A stretch of 63,917 bases of DNA from an uncultured Gammaproteobacteria bacterium (GTDB lineage: Bacteria > Patescibacteriota > Patescibacteriia > Magasanikbacterales > GWA2-37-8). Below the pieces are notes generated by a model that saw nothing but the letters and a program-made list of their open reading frames with translations, made no database searches and was not told where the DNA came from. Below, in pieces: positions 8,906-53,162 of this stretch; positions within the stretch are counted from its first letter, which is position 1, and every line of letters starts with the position of its first letter. The stretch is taken from the NCBI GenBank assembly GCA_964570525.1, contig CAZMYO010000007.1, forward strand, positions 1-63,917. The letters run 5' to 3'. Position numbers and translations under genes: made by a program.

Positions 8906-8927
8906 CCCGATCTTTCCAAAAATTTAG

Positions 8928-9001
8928 AGGCCACGGCGGGATTCGCACCCGCGAATAGCGGTTTTGCAGACCGCAGTGTTAGGCTACTTCACCACGTGGC
9001 C
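8928..9001 (-). tRNA. tRNA-Cys (anticodon GCA)
   Basis: Acceptor GGCCACG/CGTGGCC, anticodon arm GCGGT-CTGCAAA-ACCGC, T-arm GCGGG-TGCGAAT-CCCGC and discriminator U. Confidence 0.85.
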
Positions 9002-9125
9002 ATTCTAAATTTTTGTCAAAAGATCGAGGATTTTTACTGCTTGCCTGCCCGCCTCTGGCGGGGCTATGCGACCGTTTTTTCATTCAAAGAGTACCATTTT
9101 CTAGAAAATTTTTCAAGGATTGTGC

Positions 9126-27726: not shown

Positions 27727-27729
27727 GTA

Positions 27730-27767
27730 ATAAGTCAAAAGTCTGTAAAGTCGAAAGTCCGTAAAGC
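27730..27767. repeat. AAAGTC short-repeat array
   Basis: taagtcaaaagtctgtaaagtcgaaagtccgtaaagcgg. Confidence 0.75.
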
Positions 27768-27830
27768 GGTGTGATTTACAGTCATAAGAATATACCACAA
27801 TTCACAGGTAAGTCAATGAATGATATACTA

Positions 27831-37928: not shown

Positions 37929-37970
37929 ACTGCCCGCCTTCGCTAAAAAGCTACGGCGAGGTGAAAGCGG
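37929..37970. repeat. 42-nt direct repeat, copy 1 (distal end of the Doc/HTH cassette)
   Basis: actgcccgccttcgctaaaaagctacggcgaggtgaaagcgg is identical to 38841-38882. Confidence 0.9.
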
Positions 37971-37994: not shown

Positions 37995-38414
37995 TTATTT
38001 TAACTTTTTGAGGTTTCTTTTAAGAAATTCAGCGGTAGCTTGGACTACCTGCTTTTTTACTTCCGGATCAGAGGCAGCGACCCAGTTAGCAAAATTATAC
38101 AATTTAACATTGTCTACTTCTATCCACTTACCATTTTTGTATAAAAAAACTAACAATGTCGTCATAGCAATTCGCTTGTTTCCATTTTGGAATGGGTGGT
38201 TTTTAATCATCAGATAAAACAGCATCGCTGACTTTTCAGTCAGCCCTTTATATAAAACTTTATTATCAAATTTTAAAAAGGGAGTAATGATGCAGCTCTC
38301 CAATTTATTCGGAAAACGCGTATTAAATTCAGGAATCGGTTCATCCCATTTCATTGTCTTCCTAGCCAAATCATAGGCTATGTATTCTACCTCTTTTAGA
38401 GTAATATCTTTCAT
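37995..38414 (-). CDS. doc: Doc (death-on-curing) / Fic family toxin
   Basis: Doc-type Fic motif HPFQNGNKR in a 139-aa protein. It lies 5 nt downstream of a small HTH gene. Confidence 0.85.
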   Translation of the reverse strand: MKDITLKEVEYIAYDLARKTMKWDEPIPEFNTRFPNKLESCIITPFLKFDNKVLYKGLTEKSAMLFYLMIKNHPFQNGNKRIAMTTLLVFLYKNGKWIEVDNVKLYNFANWVAASDPEVKKQVVQATAEFLKRNLKKLK

Positions 38415-38419
38415 AAAAA

Positions 38420-38680
38420 TTACTCTTTTGCTAACAAACGCAGAGTTTCACCATAGTCATGCACAGTCTTGTCAACCGCGCTGTCAATTATTTTTTTGTC
38501 ATTATCTGATAATTTGTTGCTCAAACCGGATACGTCAGCAATCTTGATTAAATAATTACGGCCTTTTTTAGTGGCTTTAATTTCTCCTTTTTGTATTTTT
38601 TTAAATACAGCAATACGGCTAACTCCTAATAAAGTAGCTAATTTTGTGGTTGATATGTATTTATCGTTTTGTTTTATCAT
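38420..38680 (-). CDS. excisionase/MerR-type helix-turn-helix protein, probable antitoxin
   Basis: ISTTKLATLLGVSRIAVFKKIQKGEIKATKKGRNYLI. 86 aa, immediately upstream of doc. Confidence 0.7.
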   Translation of the reverse strand: MIKQNDKYISTTKLATLLGVSRIAVFKKIQKGEIKATKKGRNYLIKIADVSGLSNKLSDNDKKIIDSAVDKTVHDYGETLRLLAKE

Positions 38681-38840
38681 ACGTAGTTATTGTAAGCTAT
38701 GTTAACCACTTTGTCAACAGTTAACATGGATAAAAAATAATTGGCAAAAATAAGCCAATTATTTTGCTTGGCGGACTTTGTCACGCTGAAACCTCGCCCT
38801 ATCTTAAGAGAGAATAGACAGTAGAATTATTGCTAAAATT

Positions 38841-38882
38841 ACTGCCCGCCTTCGCTAAAAAGCTACGGCGAGGTGAAAGCGG
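38841..38882. repeat. 42-nt direct repeat, copy 2 (abuts and overlaps the 3' end of tRNA-Ser-CGA by 3 nt)
   Basis: Identical to 37929-37970. Confidence 0.9.
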
Positions 38883-38964
38883 AGAGGGTGGGATTCGAAC
38901 CCACGAGGCCTTGCGGCCTACCGCTTTTCGAGAGCGGCACTTTCGACCACTCAGACACCTCTCC
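38880..38964 (-). tRNA. tRNA-Ser (anticodon CGA)
   Basis: 85-nt type II tRNA with acceptor GGAGAGG/CCTCTCC, anticodon arm CCGCT-CTCGAAA-AGCGG, long variable arm GGCCGCAAGGCC and T-arm GTGGG-TTCGAAT-CCCAC. Confidence 0.88.
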
Positions 38965-39044
38965 ATTGAAAATATACTTGGTATGCATGGCACAGCCGTC
39001 AGGCGAAGCCAAGCCACCTCTTAAGAATTGATATCTAAAACAAA

Positions 39045-39095
39045 GCGGAAGGGGTGAGATTCGAACTCACGGTACCTTTTGGGTACGACAGTTTT
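39045..39095 (-). pseudogene. exact duplicate of the 3' ~50 nt of tRNA-Ser-TGA (anticodon-loop 3' side to acceptor end)
   Basis: gcggaaggggtgagattcgaactcacggtaccttttgggtacgacagtttt is identical to 39143-39193. No 5' half is attached. Confidence 0.85.
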
Positions 39096-39096
39096 T

Positions 39097-39125
39097 CCGC
39101 CCAAGGCGGACCCGCCTTGGGCGGG
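39097..39125. repeat. CCGCCCAAGGCGG / CCGCCTTGGGCGG palindromic element
   Basis: Read directly from the sequence. It fills the spacer between intact tRNA-Ser-TGA and its 3'-half copy. A related copy is at 39520-39548. Confidence 0.8.
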
Positions 39126-39143
39126 CAAGACTTCACAGTAGAG

Positions 39144-39229
39144 CGGAAGGGGTGAGATTCGAACTCACGGTACCTTTTGGGTACGACAGTTTTCAAGACT
39201 GTTGCCTTAAACCGCTCGGCCACCCTTCC
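39144..39229 (-). tRNA. tRNA-Ser (anticodon TGA)
   Basis: 86-nt type II tRNA with acceptor GGAAGGG/CCCTTCC, anticodon arm ACAGT-CTTGAAA-ACTGT, variable arm GTACCCAAAAGGTAC and T-arm GTGAG-TTCGAAT-CTCAC. Confidence 0.88.
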
Positions 39230-39246
39230 GTTCTACTGTAAAATTT

Positions 39247-39498
39247 TTATTTTAAAATATTTTTTAATAACCACTTAATCCTCTCCCGCCCTCTTCCACT
39301 TTTTAAAAATAGTTCTTCCCGTCTCGCATCGTTTTTTGATAGAAATGCTTCGTAGTAAATCAGTTTCCACGGACAACCATGTTTAGTTGCACTTACTTTT
39401 CCTGAATTGTGATAAGAGAGCCTGTTTTTGAGATCCTCGGTGCTGCCTTTATAAAGCTCTTTGGTTTTTGTACTTTTGAGTATGTAGACGTAGTGCAT
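39247..39498 (-). CDS. GIY-YIG nuclease family protein (83 aa)
   Basis: YVYILKS...ELYKGSTEDLKNRLSYHN is the GIY..YIG pattern. It lies between a tRNA 5' fragment and intact tRNA-Ser-TGA. Confidence 0.75.
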   Translation of the reverse strand: MHYVYILKSTKTKELYKGSTEDLKNRLSYHNSGKVSATKHGCPWKLIYYEAFLSKNDARREELFLKSGRGRERIKWLLKNILK

Positions 39499-39519
39499 GT
39501 TAAGATAAAGTATGCCTTT

Positions 39520-39548
39520 CCGCCCTAGGCGGATCAGCCTTGGGCTGA
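39520..39548. repeat. CCGCCCTAGGCGG-type palindromic element
   Basis: ccgccctaggcggatcagccttgggctg is related to 39097-39125. It directly abuts the tRNA 5' fragment. Confidence 0.7.
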
Positions 39549-39571
39549 AAACCGCTCTCGCACCCCTCCGC
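39543..39571 (-). pseudogene. tRNA-Ser-like 5' fragment (acceptor 5' strand plus degenerate D-arm)
   Basis: The reverse complement GGAGGGGTGCGAGAGCGGTTTTCAGCC matches about 20 of 26 positions of the 5' end of tRNA-Ser-TGA. The D-stem no longer pairs and there is no anticodon arm. Confidence 0.45.
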
Positions 39572-39688
39572 TCTGTTGCGGGAGATAATCAGTAAAATAT
39601 CATAATTAACTTTAAAAATCAACCCCGCCCCATATAGCTCACATATAAAGATAAACCAGCCCGGTGAAGTGGGCTGGTTGTAGCCGGT

Positions 39689-40039
39689 TTACTTGGTGTT
39701 CGAGATGGGCAGCTCTTTCATCCGGAGCAGGGTCACGGTGCGTACGTGGTAAACACCGTCTATCTCCGCGTTCCAGATGACGAGAAAATCACCGCCAACC
39801 AAACGAGTGTACCAGAACCAGAATTTGTCTCCTACTTTCTCTTTGGATTCCTTCCACATTACAACCTCGCCATCTCCTCTCCAGCTAACTATTTGAGCCG
39901 AATCTACCTCTATCGGAAGCGAGAATGGATGGCCCACTTGGACCCAGGCGCCGCCGGAATGAGTCATCTTCAGATGGAGATCGGGCGCGTGTCCGAGCTC
40001 CCCCCGAGGAGTTTCGTATTTCCCTTTGATCACGGTCAT
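39689..40039 (-). CDS. hypothetical protein (116 aa orphan downstream of the LTD protein)
   Basis: ATG at 40039 lies 4 nt after GGAGG. A hairpin terminator (ccagccc..gggctgg) lies at 39661-39684. Confidence 0.6.
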   Translation of the reverse strand: MTVIKGKYETPRGELGHAPDLHLKMTHSGGAWVQVGHPFSLPIEVDSAQIVSWRGDGEVVMWKESKEKVGDKFWFWYTRLVGGDFLVIWNAEIDGVYHVRTVTLLRMKELPISNTK

Positions 40040-40105
40040 GTTGCCTCCGGTTTGGGTAGTTTCACTTAGAATAGCAAGGTTAGGCAGAGAAGTCAATCCG
40101 CCAGA

Positions 40106-43100
40106 CTATCTAATTTTATTTTTTTTAATGAAGCCTGCAGCTAAAGACACAATCTTTTTTAGACCGTCTTTCACCAAGAGTCCGCGCGCTCGGGCGAGAA
40201 ATCCAAGGAAAAGCGCGGTAATTCCTCCGGCGGTCGCGGCCAGATATTTTTTTCGTTCCGCCCGGGCGTTGTTTGCTTCAAGCAGGGCCCGTTCTTGTGC
40301 CGCGGTTTCCGAGAGGCCAAGCTCTTTGATATCATCGTTCCCGCGCGGCCACAGTTGCCAACCCGCTTGGCTTTGTTCCAGAATCCCCGTAATTTCTACT
40401 CGTTGCCCCAGAGCAAATTGCTGCCGACCAATATGCGCGCCTTGTTTAAAATATATTTTGAGCTCGCCCGATCCATCATCCAGATAGACAAAGTTACTTT
40501 TTATTTCGGTAATTTCTCCGGTCACTTTAATTAGCGTCCCGAGCACTTCTTCGCTAAGATTATCAAGCGTGATCTGGTTTGGTTCTCCCGTGTTTGGCGC
40601 GGCGATGGCCAAAATATCTATGGCGGTCTTGTCTTTTATTCTCAAGCGTTTCGTCCCGTTAGCGGCACTTATGATGCCAACCGCCTGAACGTAGTCGCCG
40701 AGAGCGAGCTCGGGAAAATCTTTTTTATTTTGATAAATTTGGAGGCCGCCGTTGTCGTCGCTTAAATAAAAATATTGGGCGCTAAAGGTATTGGGGAGCG
40801 CGGTAACAAGGCCGCGCACGGTGAGGTAGGCTCCTTTTTCGATCGTCCGAGCATCGGCCAGGGCGAAGCGACCCCGCGAGGCTACGCGCGGAGAAATTAT
40901 TGCGGTGATTTTTTTACCGGCAACTTGTTGCGGCGCTTGAGTGTTGGCGCGGCCGGGTGTGGGAGTGTTCACCCAATTAAACTCACCGTTCATGAGGGCA
41001 AAGCTTTGCCCCGGCGAGCTTTGGGATAATTTGACGAGATCAACCGGGCGGCGATCGGCGGAGGATAATTCTACCTTATCGCCGGCATTATTAAGATGTA
41101 GACGGGTGGCCAAGCTAAAGAAAGTTAAAAATTCATGCGGCGGCATAATTGTTTTTTCGGGAACGGTGAAAGTTTTTCCATTTTTAATGCCAATCTGCCA
41201 GCCGCTCACGTTCACAGTGCTTGAGCTGTCATTGTAGAGCTCAATGAATTCATTACTATCAACGCCGGCCGGGTTCGGGAAAACTTCATTTATGACTACC
41301 GCGTCGTTGGTGGCTCCATTCCAACCGATTGCAACAGCGAGTTGTTTTTCATCAGCCGTGCCGGCGGAGCTGGTGGCGAAAATGGTGATTGCATAGAGTC
41401 CGGAGGTGGCGAAAGCACGGCTAATTTTTTCTCCCGGGAAGGTAGAGCTGGTATCGCTAAAGTTCCAGAGAAAATGTAGCTCCCCGCCGCGCGGATCGGC
41501 AGTTCCAGCAGCGTCAAAAGTCAACAGTTCTCCGGGTTCGCCGCTAGCTGGCGCGGTAATTTTCCAGAATAAATTTATAGTATCGGGAGTGTCAATGATA
41601 TTCGGCTGGTTTTTGGTAACTTCTTCACTCCAGTGCCAGCCGTTGCTGTCGCGGCTATAGCTCAAACCCTCAAGCGCTTTAAGATAGCTTGCGATATCGG
41701 CAATATCCCCCGCGGGATTATGGAGGCGAATTTCTTCGGCGGTGTTATTCAGCGAGAGGCCGGTTTTGGTTCTTTCCCAGGCCGCAACTTCTCCCGGATT
41801 GATGCTGCCGGTAAGCTTAAATTTTTTAGCCGCGTCGGCTAGGCTCCAGCCGGCCAGGTCAACCGTTGCCGAAGAAATATTTTTAATTTCAATAAATTCA
41901 TCTTCCAGATCTGGTCCCGGCGGATTAGGATAGAGCTCGTTTAAAATAAGTGGCGAGGTAGAGGTGGCAAGACGCGTTTCCGAGGCAACGATTTTTTCTC
42001 CGGCTATTTGTGGAGTAATCGCGGATCCCGATGAGGAGGGTGAAGAGCCGGTTGACGACCCGCCTCCGCTACTACGCTCAACGACTGATGGTGAGACGAT
42101 TGTGTTGGCTAGTCCTGGCGTTGGCTTAATCGTAATCGCCCAGTCGGAATCGCTGCCACTGTCGCGCCCGTCAATTTTTCTGGCGAGAACCAGCCCCTTA
42201 GCGGGAATTAAATTTCCACTGTAGTTGATTTGGTTTATCGTGGCTCCACCAGGATTTTTTAAAGAAACAATGTCTCCGCTATTATTTAAATAACTGTCAG
42301 TCAAAAGATCAACCACGAGCCACCCGCCGGCCGCGATAGTGTTGCCAAGAACTTTGCAGGTGGAGGTGGTATTCCTGGCGTCACAGAGGATTCCGCCGGT
42401 AAGATCGAGATTTTCGGATGAATTGTTATAGAGTTCCACCCACTCATTGCCGGAAGCAGGGTTGGGCAGGAGCTCATTGATTTTTATTTTTAACCATGTT
42501 TCGGAGGTGTTAGGCAAGGAAGTGGCCGGGGACGATGGGCTAGTTGTCGTTGGAGTGGCAGTTACGGCAGCGGCAATGGAGAAATTACTATTGATGAACC
42601 CAAGCGTGTTGCCGGACGCGTGTTCCTGCCAGTTGGCGCTTGTGTAATCGATGAGATTCGGATCGCGGCGCTCCAGTGAAAATTTAGTTGTTGGGAGGTA
42701 AGTAAATTTTTCGATAAAATTGCCACTCGAATCTTTGAGACCGATTTCTTCGCCGTTTTCGCTTAAACTCGTCCAGGACGAATCAAAAACCGATCCGCCG
42801 AATGCCGGATGATCGGCGATGAAGGTGGCGGCGTTCTGGCAGATAGCGGCATATTCGCCTGGGAGAACGATGCTATCCGAGCCCGTCGCGTTGAGGCCAT
42901 GGTTGGTATTATTTTCCCAGAATTTCCAGCCGGTGAGATCGACCGGTTCGTTTCCTTTATTCCAAATTTCAACCCACTCATGCGTGCTCGTGGGGTAGGC
43001 GCCGATTTCGTTAATAATTATGTCGGCGGGGGCGGAGAAAACAGCGGTGAAAACAAAAAAGCCGCCGAAGAGAACGACAGTTAACCAGATTATTATCCTG

Positions 43101-43144
43101 CGGGTGATCCCTCGTAAGGGGAAAAACTTATAGTGTGTGGGCAT
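40106..43144 (-). CDS. large surface protein with four lamin-tail-domain (LTD) repeats, a PKD-like domain and two OB-fold-like modules
   Basis: LTD signatures are IINEIG..EWVEIWN..DLTGW, INELLPNP..EWVELYN..DLTGG, LNELYPNP..EFIEIKN..DLAGW and INEVFPNP..EFIELYN..VSGW. The PKD-like segment is FDAAGTADPRGGELHFLWNFSD. N-terminal and C-terminal hydrophobic anchors are present. Confidence 0.8.
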   Translation of the reverse strand: MPTHYKFFPLRGITRRIIIWLTVVLFGGFFVFTAVFSAPADIIINEIGAYPTSTHEWVEIWNKGNEPVDLTGWKFWENNTNHGLNATGSDSIVLPGEYAAICQNAATFIADHPAFGGSVFDSSWTSLSENGEEIGLKDSSGNFIEKFTYLPTTKFSLERRDPNLIDYTSANWQEHASGNTLGFINSNFSIAAAVTATPTTTSPSSPATSLPNTSETWLKIKINELLPNPASGNEWVELYNNSSENLDLTGGILCDARNTTSTCKVLGNTIAAGGWLVVDLLTDSYLNNSGDIVSLKNPGGATINQINYSGNLIPAKGLVLARKIDGRDSGSDSDWAITIKPTPGLANTIVSPSVVERSSGGGSSTGSSPSSSGSAITPQIAGEKIVASETRLATSTSPLILNELYPNPPGPDLEDEFIEIKNISSATVDLAGWSLADAAKKFKLTGSINPGEVAAWERTKTGLSLNNTAEEIRLHNPAGDIADIASYLKALEGLSYSRDSNGWHWSEEVTKNQPNIIDTPDTINLFWKITAPASGEPGELLTFDAAGTADPRGGELHFLWNFSDTSSTFPGEKISRAFATSGLYAITIFATSSAGTADEKQLAVAIGWNGATNDAVVINEVFPNPAGVDSNEFIELYNDSSSTVNVSGWQIGIKNGKTFTVPEKTIMPPHEFLTFFSLATRLHLNNAGDKVELSSADRRPVDLVKLSQSSPGQSFALMNGEFNWVNTPTPGRANTQAPQQVAGKKITAIISPRVASRGRFALADARTIEKGAYLTVRGLVTALPNTFSAQYFYLSDDNGGLQIYQNKKDFPELALGDYVQAVGIISAANGTKRLRIKDKTAIDILAIAAPNTGEPNQITLDNLSEEVLGTLIKVTGEITEIKSNFVYLDDGSGELKIYFKQGAHIGRQQFALGQRVEITGILEQSQAGWQLWPRGNDDIKELGLSETAAQERALLEANNARAERKKYLAATAGGITALFLGFLARARGLLVKDGLKKIVSLAAGFIKKNKIR

Positions 43145-48371: not shown

Positions 48372-48624
48372 AAAATTTGTTTAAAGCTAAATTCCACACC
48401 TTGGGGATTATATCACTAGTATCAGGGCGCTGCCAACTCTGTCTCGATGCCCATCGGAATGAGGTTAGAATGTTTCTGGGAAATCCGCCAGAGGCGGATT
48501 GTTATTCCCAACAAAATTTACTGCGTCTAACGACTTATAAATTTTGGGCGAGTAACAAAAAGAAAAAGCCCGCCGGTGTTTTACCGAGCGGGCGGATTAT
48601 TTGGGAGTGTAGCTTACTTGCTCA

Positions 48625-53068: not shown

Positions 53069-53090
53069 TAGGCGTTAACAACCCGCCAAA

Positions 53091-53162
53091 GGCGGATTGT
53101 TACTGCTAGTGAAAACATGTTCGTCCGCTGAGGCGAACTCCACGTTTTCAAGCCAGTAACAA
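53091..53162. repeat. long-hairpin repeat, copy A (GGCGGATTGTTACTGCTAGT ... TTTTCAAGCCAGTAACAA)
   Basis: The shared ~25-nt 5' and ~20-nt 3' ends match 53329-53381. It folds into a ~30-bp stem and lies in the predicted 5' UTR of the 3D-domain gene. Confidence 0.75.

Follow-up and report, generated by a model that had tools for sequence, protein, structure and literature searches.

A tRNA-Ser locus of unusual construction lies in contig CAZMYO010000007.1 (GenBank assembly GCA_964570525.1) from an uncultured bacterium that GTDB places in the Patescibacteriota (candidate phyla radiation, CPR); the whole stretch of 63,917 nucleotides (63.9 kb) is referred to below as the window, and the locus was read on the minus strand of positions 38700–39900. 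Interleaved there are a gene for an 83-aa GIY-YIG nuclease, an intact tRNA-Ser(UGA) gene downstream of it, the pieces of an older tRNA-Ser gene, and two copies of a 30-nt double hairpin that we name the palindromic element (PE), an arrangement that we interpret as a probable mobile cassette. Scans for tRNAs, open reading frames (ORFs), repeats and protein families recovered all the parts listed in an initial annotation of the locus, at coordinates that were exact or within 1–3 nt; ARAGORN and Rfam agree on the intact tRNA, and Pfam confirms the nuclease gene (Table 1).

The older tRNA-Ser gene is nearly complete and is interrupted three times: by PE1 between positions 20b and 21, by a 380-nt unit between positions 26 and 29, and by PE2 between positions 35 and 36. 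In the old gene, PE1 thus falls within the D loop and PE2 within the anticodon loop, inside the anticodon itself. The pieces (positions 1–20, 21–26, 29–35 and 36–73) join without overlap. Furthermore, the old leader ‘aacagag’ (39577–39571) is, as read from the sequence, complementary to the trailer ‘ctttgtt’ that follows the 3′ piece, which favours a common origin of the outer pieces in a single gene. The inserted unit (39512–39133) comprises a spacer, the GIY-YIG gene, and the intact tRNA-Ser(UGA) with its short leader and trailer; its ends are 6–7 nt from each PE. The initial annotation had envisaged a unit bounded by the palindromes and inserted into the anticodon region of an older tRNA-Ser gene. 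A nuclease gene with its own tRNA does lie inside such a gene, but this unit does not end at the palindromes, which occupy the separate junctions 20|21 and 35|36, and the 5′ fragment breaks in the D loop, not in the anticodon arm. Two short pieces, ‘aaggca’ and ‘agtcttg’, had also been missed. A related locus, L095, is instructive in this respect: an intact tRNA is followed by a pseudo-tRNA, ‘ggtttt-PE-aaaggcagcagtcttg-PE-aaaaactgtcg...’, in which PEs stand at the window's two positions and the tRNA sequence is contiguous, with no GIY-YIG gene. To judge from this sequence, a two-PE pseudo-tRNA of the L095 type appears to be the structure into which the window's unit inserted.

The 5′ fragment, initially placed at 39571–39543 and described as decayed, is a genuine tRNA-Ser piece of slightly smaller extent, with 81% identity over 26 nt to the 5′ end of the intact tRNA in the repeat scan. 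Its D-stem strand is of the C10-G11-A12 type, a type found in other CPR genomes (L056, L030), in fragments as well as in functional tRNA-Ser genes, whereas the piece ‘aaggca’ and the intact tRNA are both of the G10-C11-C12 type. The old 5′ piece is therefore a different allele rather than a decayed copy, and the PE1 junction is chimeric. The 3′ part is an exact copy, as claimed, although of 52 rather than 51 nt; the two repeats are 98 nt apart, with 46 nt between the copies. Short exact repeats can mislead assemblers; those found here are shorter than typical reads, and related contigs share the architecture. A tRNA intron, either group I or protein-spliced, was rejected: there was no match to an Rfam intron family, the intron mode of ARAGORN found none, and the PE-bearing copies that we inspected are truncated and stand beside an intact gene. 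Run on all loci, the same mode called no PE-interrupted tRNA. A permissive Rfam search of 37.5–41 kb returned the two tRNAs and sub-threshold partial matches from the tRNA 3′ copies, with no intron and no known small RNA, and Rfam found tRNAs only in eight related loci.

Table 1. Features of the tRNA-Ser locus in the window, followed by inserts of another kind at related loci (L numbers, each with its own numbering)
Feature	Positions	Strand	Evidence
Old tRNA-Ser 5′ piece, positions 1–20b (ggaggggtgcgagagcggttt)	39549..39569	(-)	Sequence; 17/21 identical to intact tRNA
PE1, 30-nt double hairpin (tcagcc-caa-ggctga / tccgcc-tag-ggcgga)	39519..39548	(-)	Repeat scan, folding, family covariation
tRNA piece ‘aaggca’, positions 21–26, directly after PE1	39513..39518	(-)	Comparison with L095 pseudo-tRNA aaaggcagcagtcttg
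Spacer, tRNA piece to ATG	39499..39512	(-)	Sequence; promoter-like-site scan
GIY-YIG nuclease gene, 83 aa, minimal Slx1/UPF0213-type domain	39247..39498	(-)	Pfam PF01541, E=6.6e-15
Spacer and leader of intact tRNA	39230..39246	(-)	Leader ‘acagtaga’ pairs with trailer ‘tctactgt’
Intact tRNA-Ser(UGA)	39144..39229	(-)	ARAGORN (39143–39229); Rfam tRNA, 60 bits
Trailer of intact tRNA (ctctactgtga), right end of 380-nt unit	39133..39143	(-)	Sequence, inverted repeat
Old tRNA piece ‘agtcttg’, positions 29–35, directly before PE2	39126..39132	(-)	Sequence; comparison with L095
PE2, 30-nt double hairpin (cccgcc-caa-ggcggg / tccgcc-ttg-ggcgga)	39096..39125	(-)	Repeat scan, pattern search, folding
Old tRNA 3′ part, positions 36–73 + ‘ct’	39044..39095	(-)	Exact 52-nt copy of 39142–39193 (100%); Rfam partial-model matches
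Neighbouring tRNA-Ser(CGA), context, outside cassette	38880..38964	(-)	ARAGORN (38879–38964); Rfam tRNA, 55 bits
caaactgctttg inserts	L009 2859–3041, L014 2125–2307, L022 2833–2999, L031 1158–1305		
caaactgctttg inserts, further	L032 2847–3070, L045 2860–3061, L078 2514–2699, L095 7441–7597		

The palindromes recorded in the initial annotation are present, each of them being two adjacent hairpins with 6-bp stems and 3-nt loops. PE1 folds into two hairpins on both strands (z-scores of -4.3 and -5.1); it shares 90% identity over 29 nt with PE2, and the sequence of the latter is identical to that of the PE at L034. Matches to the pattern CCGCCNNGGGCGG with no more than one mismatch number 14 in the window, against 2.0 expected. 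The double-hairpin form occurs there in two copies, both at the tRNA-Ser locus, and among 80 related loci (see below) PEs are rare outside the GIY-YIG/tRNA context. Dispersed repeats of the repetitive extragenic palindrome (REP) or miniature inverted-repeat transposable element (MITE) type were rejected, since many dispersed copies would be expected of them and the 63.9 kb hold only these two. We aligned 60 distinct PEs, which had been found through their GCC...GGC cores only. In a two-hairpin model 99.7% of the cells are paired, and 10 of the 12 pairs have changed on both sides (127 cells), values that none of 500 shuffles reaches; slid controls of the model collapse. A single long palindrome, with 80.6% of cells paired, does no better than shuffles and was discarded. 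Judged by its covariation, PE is a selected structure. The first hairpin has a CNA loop and the second a TNG loop; these are reverse complements of each other, and PE therefore looks the same on both strands. Such strand symmetry, together with the covariation, points to a site that may be structured at the level of DNA, for example as a cruciform or as single-stranded hairpins.

Nested or compound double hairpins were seen in L014 (1690–1777), L022 (2405–2500), L032 (2420–2500), L061 (2420–2500) and L068 (2424–2500), and in L014 and L022 one PE lies within another; the presence of a PE within or beside another suggests that insertion has recurred at one and the same place. Elsewhere in the window, a tRNA-Ser-type 5′ piece (‘ggtcgcatag’) and then a single hairpin (cccgcc-aga-ggcggg) occur upstream of tRNA-Cys (8927–9001), at ~9045–9080 on the minus strand; this pair may be a relic of a fragment-hairpin unit without the nuclease gene. 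Similar gactttacagactt / ggactttcgactt repeat motifs are found upstream of tRNA-Ala(CGC) and tRNA-Ala(UGC), at 193–279 and 27727–27790 (minus strand). Single hairpins of the form aacaatccgccNNNggcgg, at 48485–48497 and 53083–53095, have a common 5′ flank and could represent either terminators or a further small family of repeats.

The protein has the GIY and YIG motifs, spaced by about 10–11 residues, the conserved Arg, the catalytic Glu and the fold (a three-stranded sheet plus helices) of the GIY-YIG superfamily: Y3, Y5, Y16, G18, R26, H30, N31, E61 and E62 are invariant in 31 homologous sequences, with Y16 and G18 forming a Y-x-G motif. Nonsynonymous divergence (dN) among homologues is 0.16–0.23, with synonymous sites saturated; by this measure the protein is under strong purifying selection. 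When the sequences of solved structures were searched, the UPF0213 protein BH0048 (1ZG2, E=2e-10) came first, followed by EF2693 (1YWL, 4e-06), and SLX1 matched weakly (0.0025). An AlphaFold model with a mean predicted local distance difference test (pLDDT) score of 94 also has 1ZG2 as its best Foldseek match, then Slx1 nuclease domains (template modelling (TM) score 0.63–0.69, 30–32% identity), I-TevI (0.58) and UvrC (0.56). By homology and predicted fold, it is a minimal, domain-only nuclease of the Slx1/UPF0213 type without a DNA-binding module. The initial annotation had hinted at a homing endonuclease. That idea fits a nuclease in or next to a tRNA gene and its presence or absence at the same site in different genomes; it does not extend to a classical homing endonuclease, since the 83 residues form a catalytic domain only and the separate DNA-binding domain of that class is missing. 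TIGR01453 scored 16.8 bits against the protein (cut-off, 56), PHROGs and PADLOC gave no match for the nuclease, and an exact-protein look-up returned no record.

The family is large: a profile search gives 4465 clusters at 50% identity (E<=1e-10), and hundreds of close homologues occur in CPR/Patescibacteria metagenomes. Its database proteins (for example P0021, P0022 and many profile-search entries) often carry N-terminal extensions of 20–48 aa, such as ‘..GSALGGKT..’; these are translated PE plus tRNA fragment, and hence gene-calling artefacts. In one homologue (L071, 2501–2746) a TGA occupies the otherwise invariant Trp44 codon, which indicates either a pseudogene or a genome that reads TGA as an amino acid.

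The association of nuclease gene and tRNA, which the initial annotation had proposed to seek elsewhere, is the rule among 80 homologous loci (57–77% identity) taken from one-genome-per-species contigs. A tRNA on the same strand lies within 130 nt downstream of the GIY-YIG gene in 76 loci and within 50 nt in 72; of the remaining four, three run into the end of a contig and one (L058) has a mirror arrangement. The adjacent tRNAs are Ser(GCU) in 24 cases, Ser(UGA) in 23, Ser(CGA) in 12, Ser(GGA) in 10, Tyr in 4, Asp in 2 and Cys in 1, i.e., tRNA-Ser of four anticodon types in 69 loci; more distant paralogues (41–48% identity) adjoin tRNA-Glu, -Thr and -Trp in the same layout. In most loci the 5′ end of the adjacent tRNA is repeated, exactly or nearly so, ~40–60 nt upstream of the ATG, and in 79 of 83 GIY-YIG gene copies this tRNA 5′ copy is interrupted by a PE. 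The interruption falls at position 12/13 in ~45 loci, at 35/36 in ~15, at 8 in six copies, at 20/21 in the window, L001 and L067 (and, by inspection, L081) and in the T loop in the tRNA-Asp loci (and, by inspection, the tRNA-Tyr locus L058); in the cloverleaf, each of these classes is either unpaired or at a junction. Beyond the PE, a median of 7 nt of tRNA sequence precedes the spacer and ORF. Some loci contain another insert, ~120–210 nt, after the tRNA (Table 1): it combines a hairpin resembling a terminator with a T-arm copy in inverted orientation (‘gggattcgaa’) and a core, caaactgctttg, and is followed by a duplicated tRNA 3′ end of 14–22 nt. These inserts match no Rfam family.

We also found signs of gain, loss and movement. 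The site defined by a large LTD-domain protein gene and tRNA-Ser(UGA) is occupied by the cassette in the window, in L081 (GIY-YIG gene 80% identical) and in L082/L001 (77%). The comparative check suggested in the initial annotation, for an uninterrupted tRNA-Ser at the syntenic site, was borne out in L084, L085, L090, L093 and L094, where the LTD gene is directly followed by such a tRNA-Ser(UGA), with no GIY-YIG gene and no PE. Presence and absence of the kind expected of homing endonucleases are thus seen, between distant relatives only. Some loci (L004, L024, L032) have two or three cassettes, and others have 1.5-unit or stacked arrangements (L005, L076, L004, L081), units flanked by PEs (L034, L027), an ORF with a PE on either side (L081), or a fragment-PE-tRNA arrangement without the GIY-YIG gene (L051). 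The nearest GIY-YIG relative has the same PE position class in 43 of 66 comparisons (28 expected; 0/1000 shuffles) and the same anticodon in 29 of 66 (16 expected), from which it appears that the cassette evolves as a unit but often changes its isoacceptor. In L020 the truncated fragment matches the other tRNA-Ser genes of the genome, and the intact tRNA next to the GIY-YIG gene belongs to a foreign type. In L071 and L010, fragment and intact tRNA differ in the D arm only, by 10–11 largely compensatory changes, and not in the 5′ strands of the acceptor or anticodon arms; this is what would be expected if an imported 5′ part must pair with a resident 3′ part. As a sign of flank co-conversion, these chimeric tRNA sequences are only suggestive.

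Bearing these observations in mind, we consider that the locus is probably one copy of a modular element widespread in CPR/Patescibacteria, consisting of a PE, a GIY-YIG gene of 80–85 aa and a tRNA that is kept intact beside it, and that this element is a mobile or selfish cassette that colonises tRNA genes. A terminator-like hairpin (39679–39654) ends the upstream ORF, the stretch from PE1 to the ATG contains no promoter-like site and its spacer is too short for a separate promoter, and an AT-rich ‘ttatgatat’ precedes the start of the old tRNA by 27–29 nt, in the window as in L082; these features suggest that transcription runs from the resident tRNA promoter through fragment, PE, GIY-YIG gene and intact tRNA. 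The nuclease gene would then be co-transcribed with the intact tRNA without a promoter of its own, and the tRNA would be released from the joint transcript by normal processing. The loop positions of the breakpoints, their nearly fixed distance of 6–9 nt from the PEs and the Slx1-type protein together suggest a nuclease that cuts structured DNA. We envisage that it would break at, or a few nt from, such a structure, candidates being the loop-coding positions of tRNA genes and PE itself, and that homologous repair from a cassette-bearing copy, with tRNA sequence as the homology arm, would copy the cassette. In this proposal the repair duplicates part of the tRNA, so that one functional tRNA always remains. 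Repeated rounds would yield stacked or nested arrangements such as that in the window; furthermore, once the resident gene is broken, the cassette-linked tRNA would become indispensable and would protect the cassette from loss. As for the order of events in the window, Campbell-type recombination of a small circle, ends-in break repair and unequal recombination between PEs would all fit, and either of the first two could reproduce both the standard layout and the PE-flanked variants.

More tentatively, PE and the minimal Slx1-like nuclease may represent an unrecognised class of mobile element that targets structure and not sequence: it would cut DNA at positions that form hairpins or loops, be copied by homologous repair, and be retained through tRNA gene replacement, or addiction. 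The cut sites would then be the D, anticodon and T loops of tRNA genes, other PEs, and perhaps the tips of rRNA stem-loops, and the element would disrupt a resident tRNA gene that is essential, the sole functional copy then being one that it supplies or regenerates itself.

Several points weigh against a mobile cassette. Its presence and absence were compared between distant genomes only (the flanking protein is 37–48% identical), which leaves room for ancient gain, vertical descent and loss. A scan of viral contigs found no relatives of the nuclease, and so no vector for its transfer; the protein, which lacks a DNA-binding domain, is also unlikely to home to a specific sequence. The break-and-repair steps, and the cleavage and target of the nuclease, are ones that we infer, and the scheme offers no route by which PE enters loops. 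Were the nuclease to recognise tRNA-gene sequence alone, the regenerated intact tRNA would stay a target. The counts of G-T and A-C pairs in PE stems (6 versus 2) are compatible with a role at either the DNA or the RNA level. Finally, 24 contigs were read for one protein cluster, P0082, and its context is the same at all ten places shown. This last constancy would suit a host function, in which the nuclease is a vertically inherited partner in a tRNA operon, e.g., an RNA- or DNA-processing factor that acts on PE hairpins or pre-tRNA, with the fragments as by-products of old duplications and no mobility at all. Strong purifying selection, invariant catalytic residues, the very wide distribution of the family and its constant place upstream of a tRNA, which implies co-transcription, are likewise in keeping with such a role, and there is a prokaryotic precedent in an Slx1-like domain fused to a TrmH-type tRNA methyltransferase (PMC1564403). 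We nevertheless regard a purely host role as unlikely: the module is absent from related loci that share the upstream LTD gene; cassettes number two or three at some loci and adjoin different tRNAs; the truncation of tRNA copies, the nesting of PEs and the stacking of cassettes bear the hallmark of insertion; GIY-YIG relatives often switch isoacceptor; and L020 combines a fragment of the genome's own tRNA type with a foreign tRNA beside the nuclease gene.

It could also be that PE came first, as an independent miniature element at loop-coding sites of structured-RNA genes that the GIY-YIG gene follows by homing or retention, the two being separable. PEs do occur without the nuclease gene (PE2 of the window, both PEs of L095, and others in L051, L005, L076 and L027) and inside other PEs (L014, L022), the ORF always starts a few nt beyond a PE and never abuts it, and PE position class is only partly linked to GIY-YIG phylogeny. 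Even so, PEs are almost confined to GIY-YIG/tRNA loci, as illustrated by the window's two double hairpins, and a PE lies upstream of nearly every GIY-YIG copy; no other enzyme able to move PEs is linked to them, and we judge this order of events improbable. The initial annotation had offered integrase attachment-site (att) scars as its alternative, the 52-nt repeat and fragments being attL/attR remnants of a deleted integrative element at tRNA-Ser. A direct repeat of the 3′ part of a tRNA is indeed a classical att signature, and the neighbouring tRNA-Ser(CGA) has a 912-bp module between exact 42-nt repeats. However, Pfam scans of the ORFs in 31.7–46.2 kb revealed no integrase or recombinase within ~7 kb of the locus, and none was present in the fetched flanks of the ~80 loci where the PE/GIY-YIG/fragment layout recurs; the gap between the repeats is very short, and att sites at the 3′ end are not expected to give duplications on the 5′ side. 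Att scars are thus a very improbable explanation. It is scarcely credible that the pieces are independent decay products of tandem tRNA duplications with a GIY-YIG gene nearby by chance: tRNA-Ser genes are often clustered in these genomes, but the nuclease gene and tRNA are linked in almost all loci and the fragments are tied to that pair, PE stems covary, the breakpoints occupy defined cloverleaf positions, and the old-tRNA pieces fit together without overlap.

Around the cassette, the upstream neighbour is the LTD-domain protein gene (40106–43144), and between the two lies an ORF of 135 aa (39689–40096, minus strand) that has no family match and for which there is no counterpart in L081 or L082. 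The intact tRNA itself is bracketed by a leader/trailer inverted repeat with 25-nt arms that are 84% complementary. Complementarity over 10–12 nt between leader and trailer (39231–39240 with 39133–39142 in the window) was also seen in L034, L043 and L005, in sequences that differ between loci; as a feature of cassettes in general it was rejected, being confined to four loci. Where the tRNA has to be cut out of a longer transcript, the pairing may serve as a processing helix. Downstream, an exact 42-nt direct repeat (37929–37970 and 38841–38882) starts at the last bases of tRNA-Ser(CGA) and brackets the 912-bp module, which encodes an excisionase-like HTH_17 protein (38420–38680, minus strand) and a Fic/Doc protein (37995–38414, minus strand; PADLOC PDC-S23, 1.7e-18). 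This module looks like a small islet inserted at the 3′ end of tRNA-Ser(CGA).

If the cassette is indeed mobile, the tRNA genes of CPR bacteria, whose tiny genomes have few recognised mobile elements, would harbour an abundant selfish module that colonises them without destroying tRNA function. Its spread would explain the abundance of small ‘GIY-YIG nuclease family protein’ genes in CPR (>4,000 clusters at 50% identity), the gene fragments that litter tRNA-Ser loci and the odd N-terminal extensions produced by gene callers, and would bear on tRNA gene turnover and the horizontal replacement of tRNA genes. A minimal nuclease (~83 aa) with a defined 30-nt structured partner would, moreover, be directly testable in vitro. 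In the literature that we searched, coverage of which was incomplete, we found no description of a GIY-YIG/tRNA/hairpin module in CPR, and an earlier description is possible; a nuclease-driven selfish element of this design at tRNA genes has apparently not been described before.

Comparison with known systems places the cassette between several of them. With REP elements and their associated transposases (RAYT), and with MITEs, it has in common the combination of one enzyme gene with a short, GC-rich hairpin element; PEs, however, are not dispersed and sit in tRNA loop positions, and their partner is a hydrolytic nuclease and not an HUH transposase. Integrative elements that target tRNA genes and bring a replacement tRNA part also leave a truncated copy, regenerate an intact gene and are flanked by a direct repeat of tRNA sequence, whereas the cassette has no integrase, usually duplicates the 5′ part, and measures only ~0.35–0.4 kb. 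Slx1/UPF0213 proteins (BH0048, EF2693) are the best matches in sequence and fold. Slx1 is a structure-specific nuclease that acts on branched and stem-loop DNA, which fits a hairpin-associated role for the CPR protein; eukaryotic Slx1 has a RING domain and needs Slx4 as its partner, unlike the domain-only protein described here. For bacterial UPF0213 proteins, neither linkage to tRNA genes nor a hairpin partner was reported in the literature searched.

Two systems come closer. SegB of phages T4 and T6 is a free-standing GIY-YIG homing endonuclease encoded in a tRNA gene cluster; it cleaves inside tRNA genes at a T-loop-like motif, RAWTSGAAC, and promotes the inheritance of its own gene, and the duplication of segB with tRNA-Tyr in T-even phages depends on homologous recombination and requires both nuclease activity and UvsX/UvsY (PMC2330249; PMC13096335). 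The CPR loci likewise place a GIY-YIG gene beside tRNA genes and show partial or tandem tRNA-nuclease duplications, but SegB, which is phage-encoded and has a DNA-binding part at its C terminus, contrasts with a chromosomal, 83-aa domain-only protein of the Slx1/UPF0213 clade, and SegB loci have neither the double hairpin nor an interrupted tRNA copy. A study of CPR rRNA genes, of which the window has none, describes GIY-YIG ORFs within insertions that belong neither to group I nor to group II introns and lie mostly at the tops or bases of stem-loops; it does not mention tRNA genes (PMC11270868). By that description, the host clade and a structured RNA gene as the site are held in common, the cassette occupying loop positions of tRNA genes; the difference is that rRNA tolerates excision or fragmentation, whereas the cassette loci keep their function through a duplicated intact tRNA. 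If our interpretation is correct, the cassette would be a chromosomal counterpart to SegB and a sister case to the unexplained inserts in rRNA genes, and it is to these two systems that it appears, by analogy, to be closest.

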